Source: Ruditapes philippinarum
Taxonomy: Eukaryota
Direction: 5' to 3'
DNA: 64,000 nt
Assembly: GCF_026571515.1 (NCBI RefSeq)
Contig: NW_026855281.1
Location: 1 to 64,000 of the forward strand
A program made the translations under genes and the position numbers. Of this stretch, positions 6,051-64,000 are shown one piece after another. Positions within the stretch are counted from its first letter, which is position 1; each line of letters begins with the position of its first letter. The notes below the pieces were generated by a model that was not told where the DNA came from, did no database searches, and saw only the letters and a list, made by a program, of their open reading frames with translations.

Positions 6051-7886
6051 GTCTTAGTTAGATAAATATGACCCGAGGTCCCAGTCAAGGCTAAAATTTA
6101 ATTCTCCCATGTATCCGGACTGTAACTTGTATAACAAACTTAAAATGATGCAAATCGTTATTGATGACAGGTTCATCAGAAAATCAAGAAACTCAAGTAT
6201 ATAAAGTCACCCTAATAAGATGTATCGTTCAACTTTTTTCTTTTTAGATAATGACATTTGAATTGAGAAATAAGCGACAAAGAACATTACGCAGTAACAA
6301 CATTTAAGCACAAGAATTTAATTGTCTACAACTTTGAAAGACATTGTTTATTTTGTGTGTGCAGTTCGGTTCTTCGCTGTTAAAAGGCATCGTATACAGA
6401 GTGTTTAAGTGTTTAAGAATCATATTCACAGAAGTAAAATGGCCTTATAAAACTTTTTTAAAAACATGTACAGTAGCATTTACTTTATACAACATAAAAA
6501 GAAAAAGACATTTATTTTTCAACGTGTTTTTGATTTTGGTATAACACTGATATTTCTTAAGAAAGCGTGGTTATTTGACAGTTGGCATATGCGGTAACCA
6601 TGGAATCTGCCCATTTACAAAATTACTAACACATCAGCATATTTTTATTTTTGAATTCACTATAGAATTTAACTTGATATATCAGAAAATGTAAAAAAAA
6701 TCTCTGAAAGAAGTGTTTCGATATCTTTAATTTTTACAGAATTCATGTTTTTATTTGAGTTAAGAAGCATGAAAAATTCCTTTTTAAAGAAACATTATCG
6801 GTTTTTGTTTTCATACACAACTAGTAGATAAATAAAGTGTTGTATTATATTTGCCTTTCATTCATTCATTGCCAAAAATATTAATTCAGAGCAACCATAA
6901 ACAGTTGGGCGATAAAACGGCCATCATGGCCTACTTATTTAAAGATACTTCTTTTTTAATGTAAAGGTATGAATTACCTAAGCGTTAAATAATAACATTT
7001 CTGTGTAATATTTTCAAGTTGGATATGAATGACTCTCTCACGTTTACAATTGCAAAAGTGGGCAATGCACTTTTTTCGTGCACTAAAGTTCAACGAGGAC
7101 GCATTTAAAATCTGAGCCCTCCGAATCTTGTACAGGTATGAAGCTGTGTACAAGTTCAATAGAATTAGTGTTGTTCTCCAAAATGTATAATTATAATAAT
7201 TACATAATAATTTCACACTTTCAACATAAATTTGTTATTTAAGTACAAAAATGATATGGAATATAGATTTGATAGCAGTTATTTGGACTAGGTAAATGAA
7301 CACGACTAATTACTACTAAATTTCAAGCAAGCGTTATTCCAATGTTTAAGTTGATGTTTCTAGCTATATTAAATCAGAGAACAATAGATTAACTCTCGAC
7401 ATAAGAGAAAAATAAATCTGTCTTTACACTATGTCTTTAAACTTTAACATTAACTACTCTCTAAATGGAAAATACAGTTTTAAAACATTTAATTTCTTAT
7501 ATTTGTTAACTGCGCAGTTAGTAAGAATGATTGATACCGGTATTTGAAAATACTTTGTCTCGGTTCGATTCGTTCTTGAACCTATTCTAATTTCAAACTT
7601 TACCAAATCAGATGACTATCTGTATTACATTATCTGTTTTTTTTTTTAATATATAAGTTCTCAACTAATCGGCATATCTCGCCATTTTTCGTATTCATAA
7701 AGATATTGATTCGACCTCGAGAATGGCTAGCATTATCGATTTTAACAAATCGATTTTAACAAATAATATTGAAAAGATATAAACTATTAATTGATAAAAT
7801 ACCTTAATTATGTTAAATGATAAAACGCGGGTAGTTTATGTGACTGCTGCGGAATAACCATTGTGCGGAAACAAAGTGTTTTGAAC

Positions 7887-20436: not shown

Positions 20437-21212
20437 ATATGTTTGAANNNNNNNNNNNNNNNNNNNNNNNNNNNNNNNNNNNNNNNNNNNNNNNNNNNNN
20501 NNNNNNNNNNNNNNNNNNNNNNNNNNNNNNNNNNNNNNNNNNNNNNNNNNNNNNNNNNNNNNNNNNNNNNNNNNNNNNNNNNNNNNNNNNNTTCCTGCCT
20601 ATCACACTCGCAGGAGGATGTCATATGAAATTCGTGACCAGGTCTTTCCTAATCAGAAAGATTCCTACTCGATATCCAATACGTATAGTTGCATGTCTTT
20701 CTGCCAATCAAACGTGTCCAGGTGTGAAATCATGTCACCACGAAAATTTAATAACTGTGATGAAAGGTCGGTTTGGACCTTAAAACGTAGTTTCTTGAAA
20801 CCGATGATACTCTATAAGCGAGTATGCCAAAAGCAGGTTTTATATAAAATAAAGAATGGAAAACATCGGTACAGCGCAAAGGTGCTTCCGAATTCTATTC
20901 GACTTTGCTGAAAGTAAATTTCTCTGTATAATGTCTCATCTCTTAGTAAGACATTCCTACGTTCATCATGATAAAATTCTAAACTTTTGCAGATAAATAA
21001 ATAGTTCCCCTGCCTTACGATTATCCATTTCTAATTTAGATATAACTAGGTGATTTCCCAAAGTTGCCACGCTCTGTCTAATTATAAAGCTCAAATCCTT
21101 GTGTTAGCCTGAACTCTTGTGACCTCATCTCAATGACAAAACTATCTCAGCAATCAAGAAACAAATTTGAAATGAATGCAAGTGACTAAGAACTTTATAA
21201 CGTTGATTTCAG

Positions 21213-24200
21213 GCGGACAATAAGCTTTTTGTGGCGGCCATAGACGTTGGATCTTCGTTTTCTGGTTGGGCATTTTCCTCTATTTCGGATTTAGAACAGG
21301 CAAAAACAAACATTCATGTAAAGTCTTGGTATTCAACATACACTTCATATTCCACTGGAAAAACACCAACATGCGCCTTGATAAAACCAGACGGTGAAAC
21401 ACTGGACTCGTTCGGCTATGAGGCAGAAAGAAGATATGATGAATTATTATCCAAAAACCAACACGAGAATTATTTCTTCTTTAAACACTTCAAAACTCGT
21501 CTGTATGTAAAGTATAATGAGGTAATATTATTTTCAAATTTTTTCCTCCTAGTGGTGGTGTATCTCGACGAATANNNNNNNNNNNNNNNNNNNNNNNNNN
21601 NNNNNNNNNNNNNNNNNNNNNNNNNNNNNNNNNNNNNNNNNNNNNNNNNNNNNNNNNNNNNNNNNNNNNNNNNNNNNNNNNNNNNNNNNNNNNNNNNNNN
21701 NNNNNNNNNNNNNNNNNNNNNNNNNNNNNNNNNNNNNNNNNNNNNNNNNNNNNNNNNNNNNNNNNNNNNNNNNNNNNNNNNNNNNNNNNNNNNNNNNNNN
21801 NNNNNNNNNNNNNNNNNNNNNNNNNNNNNNNNNNNNNNNNNNNNNTCCTTTTATCTGATCATCATATATGTATGTTACATTATTACCTTGTACTCTACCG
21901 TTCAATTTTTAATCTATTAATTTTTCGTCTAACATTTTTACAAAAAATACTTTACTATTAAAATAAACGATCCATCATGAGTGCACACTAAATGGAATTA
22001 TACAAAGACTGAATGAACTTTACAAAGGTTTTCTTTTATCTTATCATGATGAATGCATTGTCCATTTCACAGCCGTTGAACACAGGAATGAAGCTTGTTG
22101 ACCAATTGGGAAAGGTGCTTCCAGCAATAAAAGTATTTTCAGCAAGCATTTGGTTTTTAGCAAAGGACATGTTTTCTGATTTAGAGAAAAGATTTCAGGA
22201 TATTCGACTGGGAGATATAAGATGGGTTATTACTGTCCCTGCCATCTGGACAGACCAAGCAAAATATTTGATGAGAGAATCTGCTTTGCAAGTAAGGTCC
22301 TTTTCAAATAGATAGGTGTCCATTACCACATTTGCTGTCGGAATGGCATATTCACATACCTATACATATTTCGATTAAAGTTATATAAATATGAAATATA
22401 TAAAAGCTTTATTATAAATATATGTATTATTAAATGCCTCAAATATTTGACTTCTTTTCATTATAAACAATACTGTATCATCATCACCTACTGATCTTAA
22501 AACCAAAAGGGATCGTCTATAGTTATGACTTTCCTTCACAAGTTTTCATTAATCAAAACGTTGACTTTGATATGTCCACTTCTGACTTAAAGGTAAACAA
22601 GAAATGTTTGTATAACATGTATGTCCCCTATCGGCAGTCAATTAGTCAAGTGATCAGGTATTTGTGACCGTCTTTTGACCTTGTGATCAAAAAATTAATG
22701 AACTTCACCTTTGACCCTTGATCAATAGAAGTTATCTACTTGCCATGACCAATGCATGTACGAAGTTTGAGGGCCAACAATCAATGCGTTGTCAAGTTAT
22801 TGATCGGAAACTGTTTTACCTACTAGGTCAATGTGACCACCTGACATCAAAATCCATTTAGTTATTCTCATGGTCATGTGCCATAAATAACAGCGTATTT
22901 CTTATCAAGCTATTCATCAGACAATGAAATATTTAGGTAAGAAATTACTTACATACGTACATATATACGTACAGATCGATGCTTTCAAAGTATGCTTCCT
23001 CTTTGGAAAACAACTTGAAACGGATTAAATAAAAAGATAAAATATATACCAAAACTAATCAAGTGAAGATCCAAACTATGTCACCTACATTATGGTTTCT
23101 TGATTACAAATAACAACATACACATATCTGTTGTAGGCAGGATTACCATCGAACAGTATAGTTATTGCTCTTGAGCCAGAAGCTGCGTCAGTTTATTGTC
23201 GGCAACTTGATGTGTGTGCTGTTAATAGAGACACGGGTGTTATGTTATCTTCCCTGGAGGTTGGAAGTAAATACCTCGTGTTAGACGCTGGTGGTAGGTA
23301 TTCGGTTATTTTAAATAAAGGTACATTACAGGCCGATTACAATTGATATCATAATATATATTTAAAAAGGGTGAAATGTATTTTAGTTGTTCTCATACCG
23401 GTTTAAATTATTTACATGTATTTGTTTTTCATTATTACATCATAGTTCAAACACTGCAAAAATCCTCACTAGTGTTTTTTGATGTAAAAATAATTTAATA
23501 TCACATATTTTTGGAGTGTGAACAAAAAGAATCTGATTCTTTCAAAACTAATAATAAGATTTGTACACATGTATTATTCAAAGCACAACTTACTCTTCAG
23601 GTGGAACAATAGATTTAACAATACACGAAATTGCTCCTTCAAATCGTGTAAAACAAGTTGTTGTTTCAAGTGGAAATATTTTTGGTGGAAATGAAGTGAA
23701 CAATGAGTTCGAAAAGTTCTTAAAAACTGCTCTTTCTGATGAAAAGTATGAACAATTTAAAAAATTTGAAACTGAAGATTGGTTGTTTTTAATGGGCGAA
23801 TTTGAAGTGAAAAAGAAATCTTTTAATCCAGAAAATACCGATTGTGTGAATATGAGATTTCCGCAAAGTTTGAAAGATATATATGAAGCAGACAACCGAA
23901 AAACAATTCTACGAAAAGTCAAAAAGACAAAAAAAATTGAAAAGGCCTTGAACCGGACGGGCTTTGGCAAAGACATTATAATCAAACGAGACAAAATGTC
24001 CTTCCCATCAGATGTTTTCGTCAAGTTCTTCGGACCTGCTGTAGAAATGACAATACAACAAATGAAAAAGGTATTAGGAAACATGCTTGTAGGATCAATA
24101 TCCTGCATCTTAATGGTAGGTGGCTTCTCTGAATGTATCCTTTTGCAGCAAGTTGTAAAGTCTGAATTTGCTAACATTCCTGTTATTGTACCAGTAGAGG

Positions 24201-24688
24201 CGTCAACTGCAGTGCTTCAAGGGGCGGTTTTATATGGATATAATCCACCTGTTATTCTAGAGAGGGTGGTGAAATATACATACGGTGTTGCAGGTAGTTC
24301 AGATTTCAAACCGGATAAACACCCTATAGAGAAGCGTTTCGTCACTGATTTTGGAGTTCAGTGTAACGATATATTCTCAAAGCATGTTACTCGAGGAGAT
24401 TTAGTAAAATTTGACACGCAGCACAAGAAACGGTATTTCATACAGAATCGAAATCAGAACAAGGTACAAATTGATATATATGCATCAGAACTTTCAAACC
24501 CGAGATTTACTACAGACAAAGACTGTCATGTTGTTGGTAAGATCATCCTAGACTTATCTTGCACAGATGATATACGTAATAACCCAATAGAAGTTACATT
24601 TGCGTTTGGAGGCACAGAAATTACTGTAACTGCCGAAGAAGCAAAATCAGGGAGAAAAGTTAGTACAGTTGTCAGTTTTCTTGAATAA
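21213..24688 (+). CDS. HSPA12: Heat shock 70 kDa protein 12 family (HSPA12A/B-like); exons 21213-21521, 22073-22291, 23137-23293, 23601-24688 (~590 aa, start codon upstream)
   Basis: Canonical AG/GT junctions with matching phases 0, 0, 1. Motifs VAAIDVGSSFSGWAFS, KTPTCAL, FGYEAE, RWVITVPAIWTDQAK.LMRE.A, ALEPEAAS, YLVLDAGGGTIDLTIHE, GG..VN.EF, LMVGGFSEC, AVLQGAVLYG, FAFGGTEI. AATAAA at 24862. Confidence 0.93.
22598..23015 (-). mobile_element. HINE-like element in the HSPA12 intron between 22291 and 23137
   Basis: acaagaaatg...gtcccc terminus, repeated tgacc(t)ttgacc cores, and a (TACA/TACG) microsatellite remnant. Confidence 0.55.
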
Positions 24689-31444: not shown

Positions 31445-33288
31445 TGATTGGAAACTGTTTTTACCTACAAGGTCAATGTGACCTTTATCTTTGACAACCT
31501 GACCTCAAAATCAAAAGGGATTATCTTATGGTCAGGTCCCATAAATAACGGCGTATTCCTTCTTAAGTTATTAATCGAACAATGAAATGTTTAGGTAAGA
31601 AATTTCTTACATACGAGCATACATACGTATACGGATCTATCCTTTCAAAGTATGCTTCAACTTTGGAAGTGGACCATAAAACAACTTGATTCGAATTAAA
31701 AAGAAAACAGATAAAATATATGCCAAAACTAATTCAATAAAGGTCTAAACTATGTAATTTTCATTATGGTTTCTCTATTACAAAAAGGCTGCGTCAGTGT
31801 ATTGTCGGCAACTTGATGTGTGTGTTGTTGATAGAGATTCGGCTGTTACGTTATCTTCCCTTGAGGTTGGAAGCAAATACCTCGTGCTAGATGCTGGTGG
31901 TAGGTTGTCGGTTATTTTGAGCTTTTAAAAAAATAAGGTACATTACCTGTCGATTACATGACCATAATTATAATAATATTTATCGTAAAAAGATTTTCAT
32001 TTCAAATTTGAAATGTATTTTGTTGTTCTTGTATCGATTTAAACTATTTATTTGTTTATCATTAATACATCATAGTTCAAACACTGCAAATCCTCACTAG
32101 TGTTTTCATGTAAGAGTTTTCTTAATATCACATATTTTTTCAAAACAAGTAACAAGATTTGTACACATGTATTATTCAAGCATATCTTATTTTTTAGGTA
32201 AAACAATAGATTTAACAGTACACTAAATTGCTCCATCAAAATGTGTTAAACAAGTTGTTGCTTCAAGTTGAAATATTTTGGCGGAAATGCAGTGAACAAG
32301 GAGTTCGAAATGTTCTTGAAAACTACTCTTCCTGATGAAAATTATGAACAATTTAAACAATTTTAAACTGAAGATTGGTTGTTTCTAATGGGATAATTTG
32401 AAGTGGAACAGAAATCTTTTCAGTCAGAGAAAACCAAATGTGTGTATGTAAGATTTCTGCTAAGTTTTAAAGATATATATGAATTATACAAACGAAATTC
32501 ATTTCTACGAATAATGAAGAAGACAAAGAGTATTGAAAAGGCCTTGAATCGGACGGACTTTGGCAAAGACATAAGTATCAAACGAGACAAAATTTCCTTC
32601 CAATCAGATGTTTTCGTCATGTTTTTCGGACCTGCGACAGACATGACAACACAGCAAATAAAAAAGGTGATAGGGAAAATGCAAGGAGGAACAATTTCCT
32701 GCATTTAATTGTAGGTGGCTTCTCTGAATGTATCCTTTTGCAGCAACTTGTAAGGTCTGAATTTTTTTCACATTCCTGTTATTGTACCAGTAGAGGCGTC
32801 AACTGCAGTGCTTCAAGGGTCAGATTTGTACGGATGTTGTTCGCCTGTTGTTTCAGAGAGGGTTGTGAAATATGGTGTTTTAGGTAGTACAAAATTCATT
32901 CCAGATAAACACCACATAATGAAACGTTTGGTCACTGATAGTGGAGTTCAGTGTAAAGATATATTCCACGAGCACGTTACTCGAGGAGATTTAATAAAAT
33001 TTGACACGCAGCCAAGGAATGGTATTTTCCACAAATTCGAAATCAAAAGAAGGTAAACTTCACAACAGCAGGTGTCAAGTGCTTTGTGGCAGCTGTAGCC
33101 TTTGCTAGGGGGCGTGAGGGATGTTGCACGTATTCATTATCCCTCATGTACAGACTCAATCAAACCGAGTCTGCAATTTTCAAGATCATCCTATATTTAT
33201 CTGGCTCAAATGACATGTGTAATCACCCACTGAAAGTGACATTGCCTTTAGAGGCACAAAAATTACTGTTACTGCAGAAGACCCAATA
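31445..33288 (+). pseudogene. Partial genomic duplicate of HSPA12 (last two exons and flanking introns), pseudogenised
   Basis: Colinear with 22800-24640 including intron sequence. The acceptor and start of the 23137 exon are deleted; in-frame stops (near 32269, 32364, 32394) and frameshifts; foreign insert at 33058-33181. Confidence 0.92.
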
Positions 33289-47719: not shown

Positions 47720-50445
47720 GCCAGGAGACAAGGCGTATGTCTAGTGTAGAAGAGACTACGAGCACACGTCGCAGAAATAAAGAAGTTATCACTAAAGCTT
47801 TGAATGTAGATCCACTTAGAAAATAAAGATCATATAACAACACATTTGATTTTAAAAACCAGATGTGTATTGTGTGCTTCACCTGCAACATTTTTTTCAT
47901 CAAGGAAAAGATCACATGAAGTTTAGATTTTCAAAATAAAATATTGGAAAACTGTCTTGAGCAGGTGTCAAGTGCCGTGTGGCAGCCGTAAAAAGTTGCC
48001 CCGTACTTCACTTCAGTGTTGTTATATTTTCTGGTCCTTCGGGATCATTGATGCCAACACTATAAAGTGTTGAGAATTGAGTACCGCTCAAGCCGGTGCT
48101 AGGGGGCGTGAGGGATGTTGCACTTTTTCATTATCCCTCATGTACAGACTCAATCAAACCGAGTCTGCAATTCTTATGTTATTTTGTTGTGATTAATGCT
48201 TCCGAGGGATCACTTTGTTTCCAGAGTTTTTGTACTTCACAACAGCAGGTGTCAAGTGCCGTGTGGCAGCCGTAAAAAGTTGCCCCGTACTTCACTTCAG
48301 TGTTGTTATATTTTCTGGTCCTTCGGGATCATTGATGCCAACACTATAAAGTGTTGAGAATTGAGTACCGCTCAAGCCGGTGCTAGGGGGCGTGAGGGAT
48401 GTTGCACTTTTTCATTATCCCTCATGTACAGACTCAATCAAACCGAGTCTGCAATTCTTATGTTATTTTGTTGTGATTAATGCTTCCGAGGGATCACTTT
48501 GTTTCCAGAGTTTTGTACTTCACAACAGCAGGTGTCAAGTGCCGTGTGGCAGCCGTAAAAAGTTGCCCCGTACTTTCACTTCAGTGTTGTTATATTTTTC
48601 TGGTCCTTCGGATCATTGATGCCAACACTATAAAGTGTTGAGAATTGAGTACCGCTCAAGCCGGTGCTAGGGGGCGTGAGGGATGTTGCACTTTTTCATT
48701 ATCCCTCATGTACAGACTCAATCAAACCGAGTCTGCAATTCTTATGTTATTTTGTTGTGATTAATGCTTCCGAGGGATCACTTTGTTTCCAGAGTTTTGA
48801 GAGAAATTATGAATGGGCAAATGAAGTGCAATTAAGATTGAGCCACGTAATAGATTTACCAGTAGCTGACGCGATATACCATCAGGCATAAATTGTTAAT
48901 TTCCTGACTGAAAAAAGTATCCCTATGGCATTTAATCTAGTAGGACAGTCTCTGATAGCAACGGAGATTAAATCCCCTGGAAGGCCAGTTATTAATAAGC
49001 AGTAAGACGCTTTTAACAAAGTTATAGATATGATTGAAAGTTGTGAAAATGCAAGCTTAATTGTCACAGACTTAGTGAACAAAATGACAGATATATGTGA
49101 GAGACGTCTTATTCAATCAAACATATGAAGGAGAAAATAATGGATAACTTTGGAGAAGCGGTTATTGTCAGTAACATTGGAGGAAGGAATGATATTGTGA
49201 CACTAAAAATAGTGTTCTTCTGTTGTTCAAAACTTTTATAAATAAATAAGAGAATTATCTGATAATGAAAAGAAACAACAAATCATTAATGCTGCTGCTA
49301 ACATTATTTTAACTGATATCAATAACTTAGTTGATCAAAAGAAAGTTATCCTTTATTCAGTGACATTTCATCACAAGAAAGAAACCTTAAATACTTACCA
49401 TACTGTGTATAATACAATCATGTCGACCAAAATATTTATCTGCTCAATTACAAGTTGGATTTGGTGTTTAATTGCACCACCATTTTGGATCAAGGTTCTT
49501 GGAAGATACATTAAATAGCCTTGGGATTTGTTGCTCCTACTATGAAGTCCAGACGTATGAAGAAAACGCTGCCGCTGTTTTATCAACAAAAATACCATGC
49601 CAAGATACAGGTTCGCCTTTTTGCATTTTATTGCTGACAATGTAGAACACAACTTAAGGAACAACAAGGAACACAACAAGGAAAGGCGGCGTTCATTGAA
49701 CGCCGCCTTTCCTTGTTGATCTTGTTTTTCATATTTAAGAACTCAGGATGGACAAAATACGTTACATGGAATGGGAATCATAGCCACTTCTTATCCAGGC
49801 TCTGCAATGACTGTACGTGTCCCTAGAATATACGTGTCAATGAATGATATATCAACACTTGAAAGAGTTGACACAAAGTATTTCGTGCAATCTGAGTCAC
49901 ATGAAGAGACCTTGCGGTTTTTTGCACTACCTGATATTCAAATGAAAAAAATGGTGAGCCATTGGACATGCTTTGCAAGCTTGTTTGGCCGTTTAGGCAA
50001 ACAAGACAAAAACTAGTCAAGGTTTTTGCAGACATTTGAAAAGCCTAGTGCATTATATCCGAAGAAGTCAACAATAACTTTTATGTCTATGATAGATCTA
50101 CGTCCAAGCGATGCTACATGTATCTATTTAACATTTCATTTCGTCTGTGAACAATCTCAAAAATACAGAAAATACACCAGTGTTAACATTTGAACAGCAA
50201 CTTTATCAAAAAGCACTTGATATCATCTTCTGACAAGGACCGTTAAAGAAAATAGTTTTGCGCTTAGGGGCGTTCCATACAGAAATGAGTTTTCTGGGCT
50301 GTATAGGATATATTATGACCGGATCTGACCTACAGGACGTGCTCGAGACAATATATGCACTAAATGCTGTTACACACATACTGTCTAGTAAAACTGTACA
50401 TCGTGCCATCAGAAGTCACATGCTAGTAGATAATGCATTAAAGAA
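47720..50445 (+). mobile_element. Degenerate Academ-like DNA transposon transposase
   Basis: Across stops and frameshifts: CLERNYEWANEVQLRLSHVIDLPVADAIYH, GRP, ADNVEHNLRTQDGQNTLHGMG, PVLTFEQQLYQKA, LRLGAFHTEMSFLGCIGYIMTGSDLQDVLETIYALNAVTHILSSKTVHRAIRSH. Superfamily assignment is from motif recall. Confidence 0.65.
47960..48798. repeat. Tandem array of ~3 near-identical 283-284 bp units inserted in the transposase relic
   Basis: agcaggtgtcaagtgccgtgtggcagcc at 47960, 48244 and 48527; units differ only by single-base indels. Diverged relatives at 33058-33181, ~35265-35325 (minus), 50830-51430 and 52015-52640. Confidence 0.95.
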
Positions 50446-53493: not shown

Positions 53494-54403
53494 ATGGAGG
53501 CTTCTTTGTCTATTTGTTCTGATGAATTGCGGGAAATCTTTTGTGAACCTTGCGGCAAGGATCGACAAACAAACTTAGCAGAAGGATTTTGTGCTGACTG
53601 CTCTGAATATTTATGTGGTCTGTGTTATAAGTATCACAAGCGCTTTAGGCAATTTGAACACCATGTTCTACAAGATAAAAACAGCATGCCTTTTGATCCA
53701 ATGCATACTGTATCGGACTCGGCAATGTCGAAAGATGTCTGTATTACAAAGTGTCGGACACACACCGATAAAGTTGTGGAATATATCTGCATGTCCTGTG
53801 ATCTAGTTGGATGTCACGACTGCATTACGAACGATCATGAATTATGCGAAAGTGTAAGACATATTCCGATCGAAGTGAAAAAATCTAAGACATCAGTAGA
53901 AATTCAAGGCTTTGCAAGAAAACTGGATGCGATGAATGAAAATGTCAAGGAGTTACAGAACAAGATTTCCAAGAATTTCCATGTTTCCGACGGTATGACC
54001 AAGACAGCCCTTTCAGACCTTGGTCAACAGAAAGAACAGCTTTTAACTTTTTTTGAGCGCCTCTTTGAAAAGATCAAATCGGATCTAAAAGAAAAACAAA
54101 ACACAGATAATCAAGTATTCACAGATTGTCTGAAAGAATTGACAATTCTACACACGGATTTGCAGGAAAAGATAGCCAGGATGAGTAATTTAGAGAAAAT
54201 TAATCAAACTTGTGAAATTTTCATTTTTATGAAAGACACACAAACATTATTAAAAAATATGAAGAGTGACATGGAGAAAATTTCCAGAAATGGACAAGAG
54301 ACGGCTGTCAGATACGATCGATCTATAGAGATTGACGATATTAAAGACGAGATTGCAGATGTTGGATATCTGGTATTCGGTGAATCTGTCAAGAATAAGA
54401 CAA
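53494..54403 (+). CDS. First coding exon: two B-box zinc fingers plus coiled coil
   Basis: ataATGG start; 910 nt; donor A|GTAAGT at 54403/54404. Confidence 0.9.
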
Positions 54404-57400
54404 GTAAGTTAAAATGCATTATAAAAAATAACACATTTAAGTGTGTGGTGATTTCAAAAACGGTTTTTAATTTTCAAACATATTTTTTAAAATTGCCATG
54501 GTAAAATTAGTTTAAAAGATTTTTGATAATATTCATCACAAATTTTACTTATCTTAAAACATTTTGCACCGTGTTTTTTCACTTTGTAATAACTAACAAA
54601 ATTAAGTGGCTGAATTACGTCAAGTGATATGATCTCTTATTTTAGACGAAAAAGCAACACGTGGACATACACAAATGAAGTCACGTCTTACTTTGTCGTG
54701 TCTTAGTGTTTAAGAGGTGACAAAAGGAAAATACAAAATACAAAGCAACTTAAAACACATAACAGTTTTCTTATTTTCGGTTCTATTTTGTCATGTCTTC
54801 GAGTATTGTTTTTGCCTTTTTTAATTTTGTAAACAACTAAGGGATCACAAAAACTTTAAAAGATTAAACAAACAATGAAACTGATATCATTTGTAGAGAT
54901 CGACTCGAAGGAAACAAGGATGGAAAAAGTAATCAACAGTTTAAACCTTGAAAATCAGGATCTCAAGAATGACATTGGTAGGATGCAGGCTCAAGTAAAT
55001 GACCTTTGCAAACAAAATACCCAGTTAAAAACACAGGTATGTGCATTTCATTTATTAGACGCTGATGAACAACATGTCACAGAAGTTTACGGGATTAGAA
55101 TAAACTTTTAACTGAAGTGTTAGTGCCATGTTTTAATATCATATTCTTTTCATCATTATCTAATTTTATCTACATATTAAATAACGTGCCAATGAGCCAG
55201 TCTATAGTCGACCGTTGAGAGAGGTAACGGCTGGACAGTGTCACTCACTTCACTTGCTCCGCCCCTGTTGAAATTCGGGTCCGCCTTAAAGTTTCGCCAA
55301 ATTAAATATGATGATCCGTATGCTAGCATTTAGTCTCCGTTGACGGGGCGGAGGGAAACCAGGACAGCTTTGATCAATATCACTTGTTGAATCATCAAAT
55401 AACAAGTTACAAAGCCTAAACAACGCCAACTATCAGAGAGGCGGTTCTCCTTCATCCATTAAGAAAGTACGCCGGTAACGCTACGGCCAGTAAGGGGAAT
55501 TCACTGCATAACAGTTTGTCCTCCAAATAATTCGGACATTATGCAGTTCGAACCCATATTTAAATGGACATTTTCTTGGCACATATTGTCTTAAATTTAT
55601 TTTAAGTATACCAAGTTGTATTTCAATTTTACTTATTCTCCAATTTATTTTGCTTCGATATTTGTTGCAACAGACAAACATTTCAGAATTTATTTCAGAC
55701 ATGGCATTTTCTTGTGGATTTATGTATTAGGTTCTACTTTTTCACAAAATATGCAACTTTATTATTTAACAACGAGCGAACACCAAGAAAATGGAGAAAA
55801 AATTGATTTATGATTCGGATATTCAACTGAAATAAAGAACGATTTTCAATGCTGATTGACTGTTCACATATTTTGGCGGCGTCTTTGATGTGCAGCATCA
55901 ACATTTAACTTATTTAACATTTAACAGTTATATTTAACCCACCTGCGAACAGACGATGGATAATATGGTGATAGTCTTCGTCCGTCAATCTTTAATTCTG
56001 TCTTTCAGTCCTATATATTTGTCCGGAGTGTTACTCTACGAGGGTTGTCCCAAAATATCGTAGACAAAGCCTGTTACTCAATCAATTATAATACAATTGA
56101 GTCCTCCAGCTAGGGAAAAGTCAATACACCTTTTATGTGTGTCTATGCAAAATAAAATCAAAATACCTTCAAAATTGACCAAGTTATCAAAATTTAAAGA
56201 ATGCTACCTATACATACCCGGCGTACGCCGTCATAAACGTCATGACGGTATAACATTTTTTTTTTAAATTTTCAAAGTATTCACCGTGTTTCGCGATGCA
56301 CTGACAGTGTGGGGTAACCCAATTTTATCATAAACGTTTTCAAAACAGTCCTGCTTCAATGTACTCAACCCTCGCAGAGTTGAGTTTCCTGGCGGAGTTC
56401 GCTGAAGTTTTCGAACATGTGACCTCGTAATTGTGATTTCAAATAAAGAAACACTGCAAAGTCTTAGGGCGTACGGAAGTCTCTGAAAACCTATCACATC
56501 AAGTTCAATCTGTGTCTCCTTAGATCTATCGCAAGGTGCATTATCTTGATAAAATATAATGTTCTCCATGTTGTCAATTAACGCTGGACGCTTCTTCAAC
56601 TTAACATAGTATTCAGTGACATTGCGTTGCGCCGCATTTTCATCTGACGTCGCCATTTTGGGCGTTTTCAAAATAGCACTGCTGTTACGTATTTTGCTAC
56701 AGACTTTTTCAAATTAACGTTACATAAACGTCTGTTGGTGATATGACGTAAAAATGAATGAGGTAATTCCACATGAATGTATTTCCCATAATTATTATTA
56801 TGCTGGAAGTTAAAGGCATTATTTTAAGAAGCATGCTCTCAACACTGACTAATATTTTATCGTGCTCCGGGTATGTTGTACTGTTAAATATAAAACCCTA
56901 ATAAAAAGCGTTACCTAATATATTGGCTATTGACTTTCAGTAGGTAAATTAACAAATGACCAAGGAAGATATCTGGTAAATTTTAATAAGTTATGACGTC
57001 AGGTTGAAGAGAAAATAATGTAGTCTACGACATTTTGGGACAACCCTCGTAAAAGTATTGTGATATCTATTTTACCTGCTCCCTGAATAATGTATATATG
57101 ACTGAAAACACATTTTGTTAATTGATAGGTAAAGAATCGAAATAACATCTTCAATTTTATCTCTCTTACATCAATGTAAGGTTTGTAAGCGTTTGTACTG
57201 TGATATACTTTAATATTATCATATTTCATGGTTTACAAATACTTAGTTTGTGCACAATAAGTTTCAATACTTTGTACATGCATTGATAATCTTTCTATTC
57301 TTTGACAAAAATAAAGAAAAGAATATCCAAATTTGGAACAGGCAAACTTGTATTTCAGGTAGACAAAGAAAAAACGGTATTGAACACCGAGATTCAAAAC

Positions 57401-60400
57401 CTCAAACAGGGCTATGAAGCAAGGTATCGTTAACTTTTAATTTTTCGTAGTTTGAAACAAACAATAATTACGTTTAATGTTTTTTTTATGGAAACAGCTC
57501 TCATTTATAAATAAAATCATTCTGTTTTCCGGATGGGTTCTACTTGAATATAAAGATAAAATGTAATATATTCAAACATTTTATCATATGATGTTTCCTT
57601 GATTTGCGACTTTCCCTTCTGACACATATATAAATCGGCAAACAATAGGATTACGTAATAGAAAGAGCACCGAATCAATAGGCTATCTGATTTGTACGAG
57701 GGAGCGTAGCCCCCGAGTATAAATCATATTGCCGAGTGTTTTGGTGTTTTTTCTCTTTTGTATCATAGTCAAACATAAAAATACGTGCCCTGTTGTCCGG
57801 GAAAAAGTAATCAATGATCGAGCATCTGAATATGATATTTCTGCCGCTTTCCCTTTCTCTGCCGTCACAATATGTAAACCCCAGCAAAAATGAGCCAATC
57901 AACGGGCATGATCTGGAGTGCGGGTAACTAATACCTGCACTCCAGTTACCGCACTGTGCATGTATATGTATACGATTTAACTCTGACACTTTTTCAACAG
58001 AAATGTCCCCAAACTATGATACAAGGAACTTCTTCGGGAACAAAACAAAATTTTAAATATAGGTTTCATTGAGCCTTTAAATTGAAAAATGTAAAACTTA
58101 AAAATCCTACAAAGTTTCAATGACATTGATAAGTGGTACAAGTGAGTAGTGCAGACACAATAAAAAAATAAAGATCATTAAATGTGCATAACTCTTACAA
58201 ACATTTTTTCGACCTTATAATGCCTGCGATATGCACTTATATATTTGGTAGTACTGATCATCTCTTTAAAGTTTTGTTGAGATTGCACCAGTAGTTGTTT
58301 AGGAGTAGTCCGGACACATTTTTGTGATGGTCGGACGGATAGACAGGGAAATGATCTTTATATATTTTAACTACACTGTACAGGGGATTATGAAAAGAGG
58401 GCGTCTTACAGTAATGTTGGTGTTCCGGTTTACACTTAAGCGCTGTCCATATATTTTACGAAAACTGGAGAGATGGAGTACTAGACCATAGTCTCGTTCA
58501 ATCATTTTAGTTCAGGAGTGTCATAGTTTTTATGTCATTAATAATTATTAATAACTTTGATTTGTTCCAGGCTAATACGAATATATTTGATATAATAATA
58601 TATGATATGATTAGAGTTATTTAGACACACCTTATCCATGCATTACATAAAGAAGTGTATCGGATTATTCAGAACTAAACAAATTATTCATTTATAATTT
58701 GCCACACTTTTTTACATTATCTACTAAATCACAAAGTACATGTATTGTGTCATTAATTATAATAATTAATTTTAATTTTTCAGACGACGTGAAAAAGATG
58801 AAGCGTATGTATACATATATTACAAAATACTTCTATGGCACTTTGAAAAACGCAATGCAAGAATATGTTCTACGGATTAGTTCTTTTATTTGTTCTACTA
58901 ATATGTGTAAACTGAATACAATTTATTATATGTAAAATTTAAGTCCGTCTCTGAAAAGCATATTCAATTTATATTATGTATTTTTATATTAAATATATTC
59001 GTATAAGTTTGAAATATATCGAATATAATAAACATTATTGAAGAATAGCATAATTTTATGGCACTTTGAAAAATGCAATGCAAGAATATTTTTTCACGGA
59101 TGATGATATATTGATGGCTTTATTAATTTGATTTATGTGTCAATGTAATAAATTAATGTATTATTAATAAAATTTCAGTTCGTTGTTGAGATGCATTTTA
59201 CATAGTTACATTTAAAAAAAAAATATTCACCTGGTATTGTTAGATCAAATATCGTCCTGCAAGCTGGAATTTCTGAAATTATTTAGACAAAATTATATTT
59301 GCCTCATTATCATATGATATTGTTGCTAAAATGAGTGACAAATCAAGTGCAATTATATACGTTGCACGCTTTCTTGTTTATGTAAACAAATTTTTATTTT
59401 TATTAGAAAAACAAAATATTATGTTTGTATGAGTACATCAAAACATTTTTGTTTAATGGAAACCTTGGCTATAGTTTGGAAAAATAACTTTCATTTTGAC
59501 AGAATTTTGATGAAAAGGAAGACACGTTTTGACAGCATTAAGATCTTTAATTCGAATCATACAACAACTTGGCTAGGGTTTTGATACACATACAAAAAAT
59601 ATGAAACACGAAGTCATTTTTTGGAAAATATGATTTCAACAGATATCTCTATATAGCATAATCAAAAGCATTATCAATTAATCGTTGTTTAAAAGTTTGT
59701 TAGAAAAACCTCTCGTTTTAGTTTTGATATGCAAGAATGCCAAATTTATTTTTTTTAATTTATATGTGTGCAACTAAAATAGATAACTATAAGTAAGATT
59801 ATACATTCGCCTTTTGATATGTAGTTTACAGAGCAATATTTTTATAACATATGCATTTGTTATTGTTATATGAGTTAACATCTAAAGAACAATTGTATAT
59901 ACTTTTATATATCTTTACGAACTCTTATCTCGGGCAGTATCATACATGTTAGAATATATGAAATGATTGAGAAAAAAAAATTATTTATAATTCTCAAACA
60001 TGATTATGATGGAATAAAGCGATTAAGTCCATCTAAATATTTTGTTAAATAGGAAATATATTTGATGTAAAAGTGATGTCATATAAAATGCATATTTTGA
60101 CAGTTTTATGAAAGAAAAAATGAAACGTTTCGATAGCATTAAGATCTTGAATGCAAAAAGTAATACAGTTAGGAAGAACAAAAATCGGCTATAGTTTTTA
60201 GGTACAAAATTGAAACACTTAAGTCCATGTAGCGAAAAAGGAATCACAATTCACACAGATCCCGTACATTGTTGAGTTTCTTATGCCTTTAATAATGTTT
60301 ATTGTCTTCGATATATTTCAAACTTATACGAATATATTTGATATAATAATACATAAATAATTCAACGTGTTAGGACAAGGTTTAGGACACGTTATCTCTC

Positions 60401-61505
60401 GCAATACTAAAAGAAATGTATCGGGTTATTGATGACTTATAAATAACAAATTGATTTATTGTTGGAATGTCCTTCCCTACGTCATTCTTCTGTGAATATT
60501 AACCTTTCCTTAACAACTACGTCATATGTCATTATTTATGATAAATTTAATTGAATGTTTCAGACTACGTCAAATGGAAAGAGAGTAAGTATACATAAAT
60601 TACAAAAACAATTTAAAGACAATTTGAAAAAAATGCAAAAATAGGTTAAACGAATAGGCAAATATAGCACACATACGTTAAAAAATCTTCTGCTTTAAAA
60701 CTAAAATGTCAAGTACTTATTTGATATAAATTATTATCTTGTGGTATTCTAATATGTAATTTAAATTAAGGCTTAGGAATGCCAAAATCCCGGTATTCCT
60801 TAATTTACATTACACATTTTCAGGAAAACACATTGAAAGTTTCTTTAGTTTTTTACATTGACTTTTTTTATTCATTTTCATGCATCTTTCATCAACTGGT
60901 CCCGCCTTAGAGTTACATAGACTTATTAAGGACAGCGCATTTAAATATTGTTTTGAAAGGGATGAGTTAAAGCAAGAATCATTACCAAATTAATATGTAA
61001 TAGAGTTTTATGGATGCTGTCCCTATTGAAACCAACCAAATGAATACCAAACTGAATACTCACTTCTGAATAAAATAAATATGGTATTTCCTATTAGTAT
61101 TTTTGATGAGCTATCTGGCACCGTCATAGTCTCATGGTTATGGTTTAGATGTACGACATCATTTTAACGTTAATGCCTATTTTTAACAAGACTATAGCAA
61201 TAATAAACAATAGAAAAAAAACAGGACTATTAATAATAGATCTCAAATTTACTGATGGAAAGGTTCTGTTTACCAAATAATGCGTAATGCTAATTATTAT
61301 ATATTTTTGTTTCAGACATCAGCTGTATGACATTAAAATGTCGAATATTGTTTGATTGATTAATTGATTGATTGATTATAACATTCTTTGCCGAAGCAAG
61401 TTCTCATGCTTTATTTGTTTAATATATACAACATTTTGATGAATATTTTCAAAATAAAAAGAACCTCATTATAACGATAGTTAAATTTCTTATTTATTAT
61501 TATTA

Positions 61506-61568
<63 letters not shown>

Positions 61569-63890
61569 GTTTAATATAATCTGCTTGTTTCAGATTACGT
61601 ACAAAAGAGACGTAAGTATACTAAATACTGATTTTGAGATAATATGATAAGCGTAGCACAAAAACCAATGCTCAATCAGTTTATTGGATTAATTTATTGA
61701 TTGGTTTATTGTTTAATGTTATGGAGGAATAATAAATATTTTTGCCCAAAAGCTAGAATTTCGTTCTTACATATTGGCAATATGCATTCTATTCTTTTAA
61801 TCGTAATAAATGGCTCAAAAATGCCGAAAATGGTGGCGACGTTTCAGTTAATATTCTTAGCATATTTGCTTGTTTAATTTAAATTATAACCCTTTAAAAA
61901 GGCTGCGTTCTGTACTGATAGAATTTTCTAAAAGTTCAGTACAATATGAAGGTGAAATAATTTATAAAAGTATTGTGATCTGAGATACACTTCGGCTCAT
62001 TGTGTTTATTGACTACTTCTCATCACTAAAAAGACATAATACTTAATTTGTTGTTTTCGTTTTCATAAGATAAAAACTGATTATTAAATTCCTTTTTTTT
62101 CTTCAGCCAACTCAAACATGAACAAGAAGAGTAAGTATATTTGATACGGCTTTAAAATACATTGTCATTTGATAATAGCCACACTCTCGTTGGTTCAAAA
62201 TTAGTCAACAGAACAATTTATAAAATCATATTCACAGGGTGTAGTGTCATAATCAGTAGCTGAACTGGATTTTCCAAAGCTAAAAATTGAATGAGCCTCA
62301 TATTCAATAATCATACAGCTAAGACAATTAACTGTGCGTGCGTAAATCACCGAGTGAATATGAGTTATGAATAGGCGAAGCATCTAAAATGGATTCATAC
62401 TCATACCAAATGACCATACAACATAGCCTTTTTGAAAATGTTGCATTTAGATCTTTATTGCATATTTCTTGAATAGGTAAAAGTAACACCGCAATGACAA
62501 TTACATTGATAACTTGTTTATAATAAAGGGTGAATTTTGGGTTTTATTTTTATCTTAAGCTGATCATATACATGTAATTATCACCTGGCCAATATGACAT
62601 TTACTGTTGAAAATCACATCATATTCAATGGCTCACAAGTAAATAATTGTGTTATAAAATCTGTACACCGCAAAACATGTGAAGTATTGACGGTTGGATA
62701 AACTATTTAAGGTTTGTCCCAGCTAATGCATTACCTTTACTTTGAAGAGTATTCAAATAGGCTAGAACTACTGTCCACTGTATTGAAATTAAGGGGCATG
62801 GGTTCAAGCCCTAGAAGAGGCACTTTTTTTCTTTCTGTTTTTTTTAAACATTATATATGTGTTTCTCGGGTCGTTCTTGGTAAAAAAGGGTATTTCATTT
62901 TAATTAAAAAATAATTTTCAGTATTTGTTTGGCTTAATTATGATTAATTAATTATCAAATATGGTACCTGATATTTTCAAAGTCTTAATTGATTTTGAAT
63001 TTAAATTTGAAAGTTTAAAAATTATTGAACTTTATTTAAAGGAGTGAACTTTAACATTTTTCAAAAATGTCTTAAGAAAAAATTATTTGCATGTATTTGA
63101 TATTTTGATAGAACATGAATTATTTATAAATTTGTTTTGCAATGAGATAAGTCAAAGCAAAAATTCATGAATTTGCATTCACGCGTTCACAACTTTACGT
63201 GTTCTTTCATCACCAGACATGATCATGCACGTTGTTATTGTAGCAAGATAGTTTAGTTTTTGACTCATGAGCATAACAGAGCACATATTGCGCAAGAAAA
63301 ATGATCTCCCCATATTCGTCTTCAGTCGTTCGTCGCCTGTCATTTACCTTTTAACTTTACTTTGATAACATCTTTTTTCTACATAAGGTTAAGTGATTAA
63401 ACTGTACATAGCAAACAACTTGACGGTTTCTGTTTTATACAAAATTACCTACATGAATCCAGTCTTTAGCATATATAAATAAAATCCGGAAAAAATAAAT
63501 TAACTTCTTTTCTCAACATCCTTTAAAGAATTTATTTATGGATTGGCCCTTTTCTTTAAAAGTGAAGATGTACAAAATAGTTTTGGCCTGTTGAGCATGT
63601 GAGAAAGCTATCCAGCTAGCTTAAAGAACGTCGGTGGTTCTACCCGGGTGAACGTTCAAGCCTGAAATAATGCACAAAGTTTCCCTCAACACGTACATAT
63701 GTCCTCTATTGTGTTGATGTGACATTAAACCCAACACTTGAATTTGATATCGCATACACAAATGAAATCCTGTCTATCGACTACATTTAATTATCAAAAA
63801 GAAGTTTCATGTACTACTGTTTGCTTTTTCATATGATGAAAACTAATATTTACATTTAATTTGTTTCAGACTACGTAGAATACAAGAGAT
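53494..63890 (+). CDS. RING-less tandem B-box / coiled-coil (TRIM-like) gene, 3'-incomplete; exons 53494-54403, 54897-55036, 57359-57423, then microexons 58784-58804, 60564-60584, 61316-61324, 61594-61611, 62107-62130, 63870-63890
   Basis: B-box1 CEPC...CADCSEYLCGLCYKYH...HH, B-box2 CRTH...CMSCDLVGCHDCITNDHELC, then coiled coil. All junctions are AG/GT with consistent phases (1, 0, then 2 throughout) and the joined frame has no stop. Confidence 0.82.
56039..57049 (-). mobile_element. Mariner (Tc1/mariner) internally deleted element, 1011 bp
   Basis: TIRs CGAGGGTTGTCCCAAAAT(A/G)TCGTAGAC flanked by TA at 56037-38 and 57050-51. Transposase C-terminal remnants IIFYQDNAP, YLKSQLRG..FEN, GEYFEN on the minus strand. 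Confidence 0.92.
58784..58804 (+). CDS. Microexon 1 (21 nt, phase 2-2; RREKDEA)
   Basis: tttttcag|ACGACGTGAAAAAGATGAAGC|gtatgt. Confidence 0.75.
60564..60584 (+). CDS. Microexon 2 (21 nt; LRQMERE)
   Basis: tgtttcag|ACTACGTCAAATGGAAAGAGA|gtaagt. Confidence 0.8.
61316..61324 (+). CDS. Microexon 3 (9 nt; HQL)
   Basis: tttttgtttcag|ACATCAGCT|gtatga. Confidence 0.55.
61490..61568. repeat. (ATT)n microsatellite just upstream of microexon 4
   Basis: Directly visible. Confidence 0.95.
61594..61611 (+). CDS. Microexon 4 (18 nt; LRTKET)
   Basis: ttgtttcag|ATTACGTACAAAAGAGAC|gtaagt. Confidence 0.78.
62107..62130 (+). CDS. Microexon 5 (24 nt; QLKHEQEE)
   Basis: ttttttttcttcag|CCAACTCAAACATGAACAAGAAGA|gtaagt. 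Confidence 0.78.
63594..63737 (+). mobile_element. Truncated bivalve tRNA-derived SINE (MetaSINE-like core and tail)
   Basis: atgtgagaaagctatccagctagcttaaagaacgtcggtggttctacccgggtg...cctgaaataatgcac...tgtgacattaaacccaac matches my recollection of a common bivalve SINE body; the head is missing. Confidence 0.55.
63870..63890 (+). CDS. Microexon 6 (21 nt; LRRIQE plus split codon)
   Basis: ttgtttcag|ACTACGTAGAATACAAGAGAT|gtaagt. Confidence 0.8.
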
Positions 63891-64000
63891 GTAAGTATAT
63901 TATTTAGTAAACGATTAATAAATATAGTTATAAAATAAGATTAAACAAGATTTAAATCGGTTGTGTGTCCAATGATTAAGAGCAAAGCAACAATTCTTCA

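Follow-up and report, generated by a model that had tools for sequence, protein, structure and literature searches.

Heptad-sized microexons in the tail of a clam B-box gene: shared module classes and a probable history of unequal recombination

We wondered how a gene might come by a tail that is encoded by a row of exons of about 21 nucleotides (nt) each. Such a row begins in the first 64 kb of contig C3768 (123,704 bases) from the 1.41-Gb genome of the clam Ruditapes philippinarum; this 64-kb stretch is referred to as the window. An earlier reading of its letters (the original prediction) held that the microexons are paralogous cassettes duplicated in tandem together with their intron flanks, and that the exons of 18 and 24 nt arose by later loss or gain of a codon. 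A protein search with the large exon of the gene returned an identical NCBI model, XP_060587182.1 (449 aa), which is rebuilt by 14 exons at 448 of 448 residues. The microexons are already annotated in NCBI, and it is their modular origin that is at issue. Very probably, the array consists of spliced, frame-preserving microexons that each add about one heptad to a predicted helix of 140 residues, and it is likely to grow, shrink and reorder by unequal recombination between modules. Such recombination would act between exon-plus-intron units within and between tandem paralogues, and growth would proceed by single modules and multi-exon blocks, with deletion and probable relocation.

All exons of the gene lie on the plus strand. 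The first coding exon (53494..54403) is large and covered by run contigs; its product has a pair of B-box-type zinc fingers together with a TRIM-like coiled coil and lacks a RING. Coding exon 2 (54897..55036, 140 nt) encodes regular heptads, and coding exon 3 (57359..57423, 65 nt), which leads into the row of microexons, has its end in phase 2. The array comprises 11 exons, me1 to me11, five inside the window and six beyond it: me1 (58784..58804, 21 nt), me2 (60564..60584, 21 nt), me3 (61594..61611, 18 nt), me4 (62107..62130, 24 nt) and me5 (63870..63890, 21 nt) are followed at contig positions 65156-69438 by me6 to me11, which start at 65156, 65554, 66857, 67574, 68381 and 69418 and measure 18, 24, 21, 21, 21 and 21 nt. 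Phase is 2-2 in all 11. Together they sum to 231 nt, that is 77 residues or 11 heptads, out of 1346 known coding bases. Four of the window microexons begin with A(C/T)(G/T)ACGT, as had been noticed before, and all five carry the donor gta(a/t)gtata. The sixth microexon that the earlier count of donors implied was not found within the window; the extra donor perhaps belongs to the 65-nt exon whose last base is 57423.

The microexons are real and spliced, given the GT..AG joints in contigs from public runs and the agreement with the NCBI residues. Six of 24 public runs were aligned to the locus; X5 is recorded as RNA, and X1 to X3 are RNA by guess. GT..AG joints connect exon 3 with me1 at 58784 (X1, X2), me1 with me2 (X1, X3), me4 with me5 (X1), me5 with me7 (X1, X5) and me7 with me8 (X1, X5), and the 18 letters between me5 and me7 are me6. 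Loose ends run from me3 into me4 (X1, X5) and from me1 into me2 (X5). Joints with an 18-letter side do not appear among those listed, and we infer the me2-me3 and me8-me9 joints from depths and record positions. Exon structure, phase symmetry and most junctions are thus direct observations. It weighs against this account that me2-me3, me3-me4 and me8-me9 are missing from the listed joints and are deduced from loose ends, depths and the positions of records, that the RNA nature of X1-X3 is a guess, and that the raw-read runs X21 and X23 (4-6% read), which are dominated by repeats, gave a depth below 1 on the large exon and no listed joint.

Some run contigs depart from the assembled order. The sequence between me1 and me8 (X1) and between me2 and me5 (X3) is given as 'not known' at the respective joints, X3 lists no letters between me5 and me7, and one X1 contig has me1 and me8 without an aligned me2. 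Both X1 and X5 contain an exon matching me8 followed by an 18+24-nt pair that has no counterpart after me8 (66857-66877) in the assembly. We interpret the X1/X5 variant orders as a second allele or a close, unassembled paralogue with another module order. Contigs of the same two runs also carry variants of me9-me11.

What might such a tail be? One B-box is recognized at residues 85-116 (Pfam zf-B_box, 25.9 bits against a cut-off of 24.1). The second, at 16-58, stays below the Pfam cut-off, with its Cys/His residues conserved in at least 90% of 32 sequences. The Pfam scan returned no RING, and a RING-like Cys/His pattern was absent from five proteins and from the three forward frames of 24.7-53.5 kb. 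Ubiquitin-ligase activity is unlikely without a RING. The 449 residues known so far, from a model that is probably cut short, contain no C-terminal NHL, B30.2 or PHD domain. Among the distant relatives in the genome, the majority run on without a break for ~500-700 codons (not counted exactly). Long relatives show NHL or propeller matches, three of the five scanned passing the NHL cut-off; in the subfamily of the window gene the open frame ends at ~305-360 codons at an intron and then resumes in microexons. The long unbroken relatives and their NHL matches suggest that this subfamily has likely traded a propeller for the microexon tail. An AlphaFold single-chain model places helices at 131-235 and 308-448, with a mean predicted local distance difference test score (pLDDT) of 79 and a predicted template-modelling score (pTM) of 0.38. 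Foldseek lists KAP1/TRIM28 (expect value, E, 1e-3; template-modelling score 0.27); its top four matches (Toxoplasma rings) are long-helix matches at a root-mean-square deviation of ~20 and were discounted.

The residues of the tail form a stripe: 9 of 11 heptads have L/I/V/M at the same place (p 0.0002), and the stripe falls on the first full codon of the microexons and continues the heptads of exons 2-3 with a shift of one residue. The tail is possibly, if doubtfully, a charged single alpha-helix that acts as a spacer and does not dimerize, its seven-residue period being nothing but the exon unit. This would suit a sequence that is 58% charged, balanced in acids and bases and free of Pro and Gly, in which only 4 of 11 heptads are hydrophobic at the second core position, and in which i+3/i+4 charge pairs are favourable compared with shuffled sequences (attractive 32 vs 24.7, p 0.037; repulsive 15 vs 23.4, p 0.016). 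However, attractive pairs fit coiled coils too, and a lone helix would not call for a strict L/I stripe that is maintained across an 18+24-nt pair and carries on from exons 2-3. A predicted leucine-striped coiled coil therefore appears likelier than a lone helix, although the charge, the weak second core position and a predicted fold that rests on very few tail sequences all count against it. There is an even chance that the tail is a leucine-striped, charge-rich coiled coil that replaces the beta-propeller of the intronless relatives and sets rod length or the choice of partner.

The coiled-coil reading leaves the origin of the modules to be explained, and here the relatives of the gene are informative. 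Other contigs carry eight close relatives of exon 1, at 48-59% identity, and all of them share exons 2-3. Downstream microexons follow in seven; the eighth contig ends 1,741 bases past exon 3. At C8193:32504-34245 the NCBI model has ~49 heptad-tail residues that were not located on the contig and may come from transcripts. A splice profile trained on the 11 exons of the window gene was run over 580,631 bases and gave 87 sense against 5 antisense candidates, 81 of the 87 being multiples of three; clustering followed the manual removal of C14960:24325, C4533:24455, C13085:44412 and candidates that lie upstream of the gene. Including contig C1635, the full set counts 103 modules on 11 contigs, of which 98 are multiples of three, with 60 of 21 nt, 22 of 24 nt and 11 of 18 nt. 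Among the 98 frame-preserving modules stops number 1 in the phase-2 frame and 57 and 31 in the other two. These counts are weakened by their lack of independence, since copies are inherited and 11 modules are the training set; moreover, some 'paralogues' may be haplotigs.

Grouped by their flanks and named after the window exons, the modules fall into classes that each span 3-7 contigs. Exon length is constant across paralogues in classes me3, me4, me5, me6, me7, me8 and me10; class me11 varies (21, 24, 24, 27, 27 and 33 nt). The order of the modules differs between genes. The window gene reads 1-2-3-4-5-6-7-8-9-10-11, C9401 reads 6-7-8-3-4-5-9-x1-10-11, C4533 reads x5-6-7-5-5-5-5-9-x1-10-11 followed by the me1/2 class, C13085 reads 9-?-10-11 followed by three me1/2-class modules, and C861 holds seven modules of the me1/2 class. 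Shared classes, differing orders and young duplications are all directly visible: on C1635 a block of order 8-3-4-5-x0 is repeated (5.7 kb, 95.7% identity), and C4533 has four tandem me5-class copies at 6304, 9067, 11130 and 14428. The latter are of two types that differ at 6 of 21 exon bases, with 22 bases before and 12 after identical (by eye), a hint of fast exon change. Exon number also differs between loci, alleles being inseparable from paralogues in these contigs. On C9401, C13085 and C14960 the tail of one gene is followed by the head of the next in the same orientation, which indicates that the genes are clustered in tandem.

Within the window gene itself, the predicted colinearity of me1 and me2 was borne out. 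The me1 module (58525..58877, plus strand) aligns with 60275-60655 at 67.6% identity over 389 columns (E 1e-22), and the motifs quoted earlier appear in order within this alignment. With splice signals removed and antisense windows of matched GC content as the null, the me1-me2 upstream flanks score 92 (99th percentile of the null 30-34; highest single null 77) and the downstream flanks only 39. The other 54 of the 55 pairs among the 11 exons reach at most 34 on either flank, with a few marginal cases, so that, inside this gene, only me1 and me2 have demonstrably common flanks. Tandem Repeats Finder detected no module array in the window. Counted by eye, 13 of 21 bases agree between the exon bodies of me1 and me2, a level no higher than in their flanks; conservation above the flanks is therefore not seen in the exon, and it is seen in the better-kept splice sites. 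Two further pieces lie between the modules: one, at 58969..59043 on the minus strand, repeats the upstream flank of me2 (60287-60360) in inverted form at 92% identity, and its junction is found again in the gene's distal part, at contig 76394-76590; the other, at 59050..59199 on the plus strand, duplicates the downstream flank of me1 (58827-58964) at 71%.

Did me1 and me2 double in place? Distal modules on C861, C9401 and C13085 align with the me2 module (59717..60655, plus strand) over 820-950 columns at 70-79% identity; me2 itself is 76-82% like modules on these contigs and 68% like me1. Modules of the me1/me2 class sit at the distal end in paralogues, and the distal part of the window gene retains broken ones. 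Self-matches aside, the intron that follows me1 is most similar to the distal part of the same gene (75%, E 8.6e-29). A tree of 19 modules, with the long-branch row C5284:6692 left out of a second tree, joins me2 with distal modules (support 94/96) and me1 with a C5284 module (84/86). The greater closeness of me2 to other contigs and the distal position of the class favour relocation without proving it: an approximately unbiased (AU) test does not reject a me1+me2 clade (p 0.075), and the node of me2 with distal modules is under the starred level. On these alignments it seems somewhat more probable that the front of the gene received me1 and me2 as copies from a distal array than that they doubled on the spot.

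The space between me2 and me3 holds a dead module of the me8 class (60940..61500, plus strand), whose exon would start at 61316. Its flanks and acceptor are kept and align with me8 and two paralogues; exon body and donor (~90 bases, by eye) are deleted, and it is absent from the NCBI model. This one deleted module is observed as such. A doubled 6-7-8-3-4-5 block that was trimmed at both ends would fit such a dead copy, and we consider it likely that the order me3-4-5-6-7-8 is a rearranged me6-7-8-3-4-5, produced by block duplication and loss with the 61316 module as its scar.

Simple growth in place, in which each microexon stems from local doubling of its neighbour and 18- and 24-nt exons from later codon change, looks improbable by comparison. 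The me1/me2 flank homology, the me1+me2 clade that the tree test leaves standing, the variable lengths of class me11 and the tandem copies on C4533 would all agree with it. Yet for me3-me11 it is already contradicted on the recent time scale, as 54 of 55 pairs lack a clear common flank, classes and lengths are common to paralogues, me2 is nearer to other contigs than to me1, and module order varies among genes with a dead module left at 61316. Tandem duplication of exon plus intron, as originally proposed, accordingly stands for young cases in paralogues (C4533, C1635) and is not supported as simple in-place growth in the window gene.

Being constant in length across paralogues, the exons of 18 and 24 nt are older than the gene duplications. 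The proposed later loss or gain of codons is demonstrated for class me11 only; elsewhere 18- and 24-nt exons form fixed, paired classes, and no 21-nt parent can be traced by flanks. Nine of the 11 18-nt exons directly precede a 24-nt exon in a set where 22 of 103 modules have 24 nt (copies not independent). Both pairs of the window gene make two heptads each, and me3+me4 hold the leucine spacing at seven. A shift of one codon in the exon boundary would explain me3/me4 as well as separate loss and gain. The pairs persist, we are inclined to think, because together they make two heptads. Classes x0, x1 and me11 speak against this, as they contain 24-nt exons without an 18-nt partner, which means that the register is not always kept.

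How far back do the classes meet? Across the 1.41 Gb the exact pattern of acceptor, 18-24 free bases and donor occurs at 21 places, of which the family accounts for 20 (control 2); the sole match outside known arrays is at C12718:185656-185696 (24 nt). The rarity of this splice context makes a deep common origin of the classes likely. It is nearly private to the family and yet common to different classes, which points to a single ancestral cassette, and descent of all module classes from such a cassette is highly probable as far as sequence comparison can tell. It detracts from this view that flank homology between classes is missing and that common ancestry rests on ~20 bases of splice context plus the exon start. 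The original prediction had named an abundant dispersed repeat as the finding that would overturn it, and such a repeat was looked for: the flanks are, but for five short hits, confined to family contigs, and the near-privacy of the splice context likewise argues against one. Module searches of the genome gave 36 matches for me1, 30 for me2, 10 for me3-4, 17 for me5, 6 for me10 and 23 for the intron after me1, all of them lower bounds. All matches are on contigs with such arrays, except five of 40-41 nt to one end of the me5 query. It is very improbable that we are dealing with a minor dispersed repeat, or with tandem non-coding copies in decay, whose sequence happens to resemble an exon. In favour of this reading, no B-box exon is assembled on the array-bearing contigs C861, C5284 and C1635, several of the distal modules are damaged (19 and 25 nt, stop-bearing, lost acceptor), and DNA searches pass over very common words. 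The spliced joints, the near-absence of stops from the phase-2 frame, the restriction of matches to family contigs and the other segments that C861 and C5284 share with the family all contradict it.

The assembly is noisy past ~69.9 kb of the contig, a further point against a complete account of the 3' end; the NCBI model is for this reason probably cut short. C3768:69900-75500 is homopolymer-rich, probably unpolished, and may conceal more microexons. Further on, the distal part of the gene contains an exon of the me1/2 class with a lost acceptor at 81458 and exon candidates at 82349 and 84520 (21 and 12 nt) that are not heptad-like. A terminal coding exon was not found; the shared block at contig 92.9-98 kb shows no exon-like open frame. 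This block (C3768:92866-97907, ~5 kb) is non-coding, 70-80% alike in up to six other family loci and probably a long 3' untranslated end.

Other features of the window lie upstream or in an intron. At 21207-24688 are exons resembling a gene that we take to be of the HSP70-12 type, with a broken second copy of its last exon at 32397-33056. A 284-base unit stands in three tandem copies (99% identity) at 47960-48799. Inverted repeats of 29 bases (97%) at 56037-56065 and 57023-57051 enclose ~960 bases of intron 2 that are well covered by repeat reads, likely a small DNA transposon.

NCBI names family members golgin-like or trichohyalin-like, and names of RING-less B-box relatives include TRIM33-like and TRIM71-like; mis-named and cut short, the family is hidden in current annotation. 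Protein searches, of which a single one covered longer forms, returned no relative outside the clam with a microexon tail, only a partial Mercenaria model that ends near the end of exon 1, a hint from sequence that the intron predates the divergence of the two clams. No description of the clam microexon family was found in the literature searched, most subscription journals being outside its coverage. A B-box orthogroup is listed in a table row of PMC8382680. The mechanism itself, exon duplication by unequal recombination, is already known. What the family adds is about a hundred modules with still-alignable introns, in which one can follow directly how single heptads arise, are duplicated in blocks, relocate and die, and which make it testable how the length and register of a coiled coil survive exon shuffling. 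It is also an example of an intronless gene family that gained an intron-rich tail.

Among known systems, the RING-less B-box/B-box/coiled-coil/NHL type of TRIM or RBCC (RING, B-box, coiled-coil) protein, expanded in bivalves, resembles the clam protein in its tandem B-boxes followed by a long helix; unlike TRIM/RBCC proteins, the clam protein has no RING and no propeller was found in it. Schistosoma micro-exon genes (MEGs) are described in PMC4350168 as having very small symmetric exons, duplication as gene families and at least one exon duplication, and as being mostly microexon and secreted. The clam gene shares the exon symmetry, but its microexons make up only the small fraction of coding bases given above, and its unit is the heptad. 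MEGs also vary by exon skipping, to which the X1 and X3 joints described above may or may not correspond.

The closest parallel is the chicken BG tail. [quoted passage not shown] The clam genes likewise build a heptad tail from 21-nt exons plus an 18/24-nt minority, differ in exon number, and have sequence-grouped exons and a tandem cluster. In contrast to BG, with its Ig-V (immunoglobulin variable-type) ectodomain and membrane helix and its place in the butyrophilin/B7 family, the clam protein has B-boxes only in Pfam, and its microexons are in phase 2 throughout with leucine at the first full codon. As no homology is seen and phase and domains differ, the two are likely convergent. At its most speculative, and unlikely as a whole, a venerid-clam branch of intronless B-box/NHL immune-type genes would have lost its ligand-binding propeller and independently evolved a kit of one heptad per exon; through recombination and exon skipping, heptads would be dealt in many combinations, and the rods, differing from one individual to another, would serve the large B-box family as adjustable rulers or decoys, under diversifying selection, a molluscan counterpart of the chicken BG tail. 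More soberly, the heptad-per-exon design of chicken BG has a second and likely independent origin in the clam array, in another phylum, another protein family and another intron phase.

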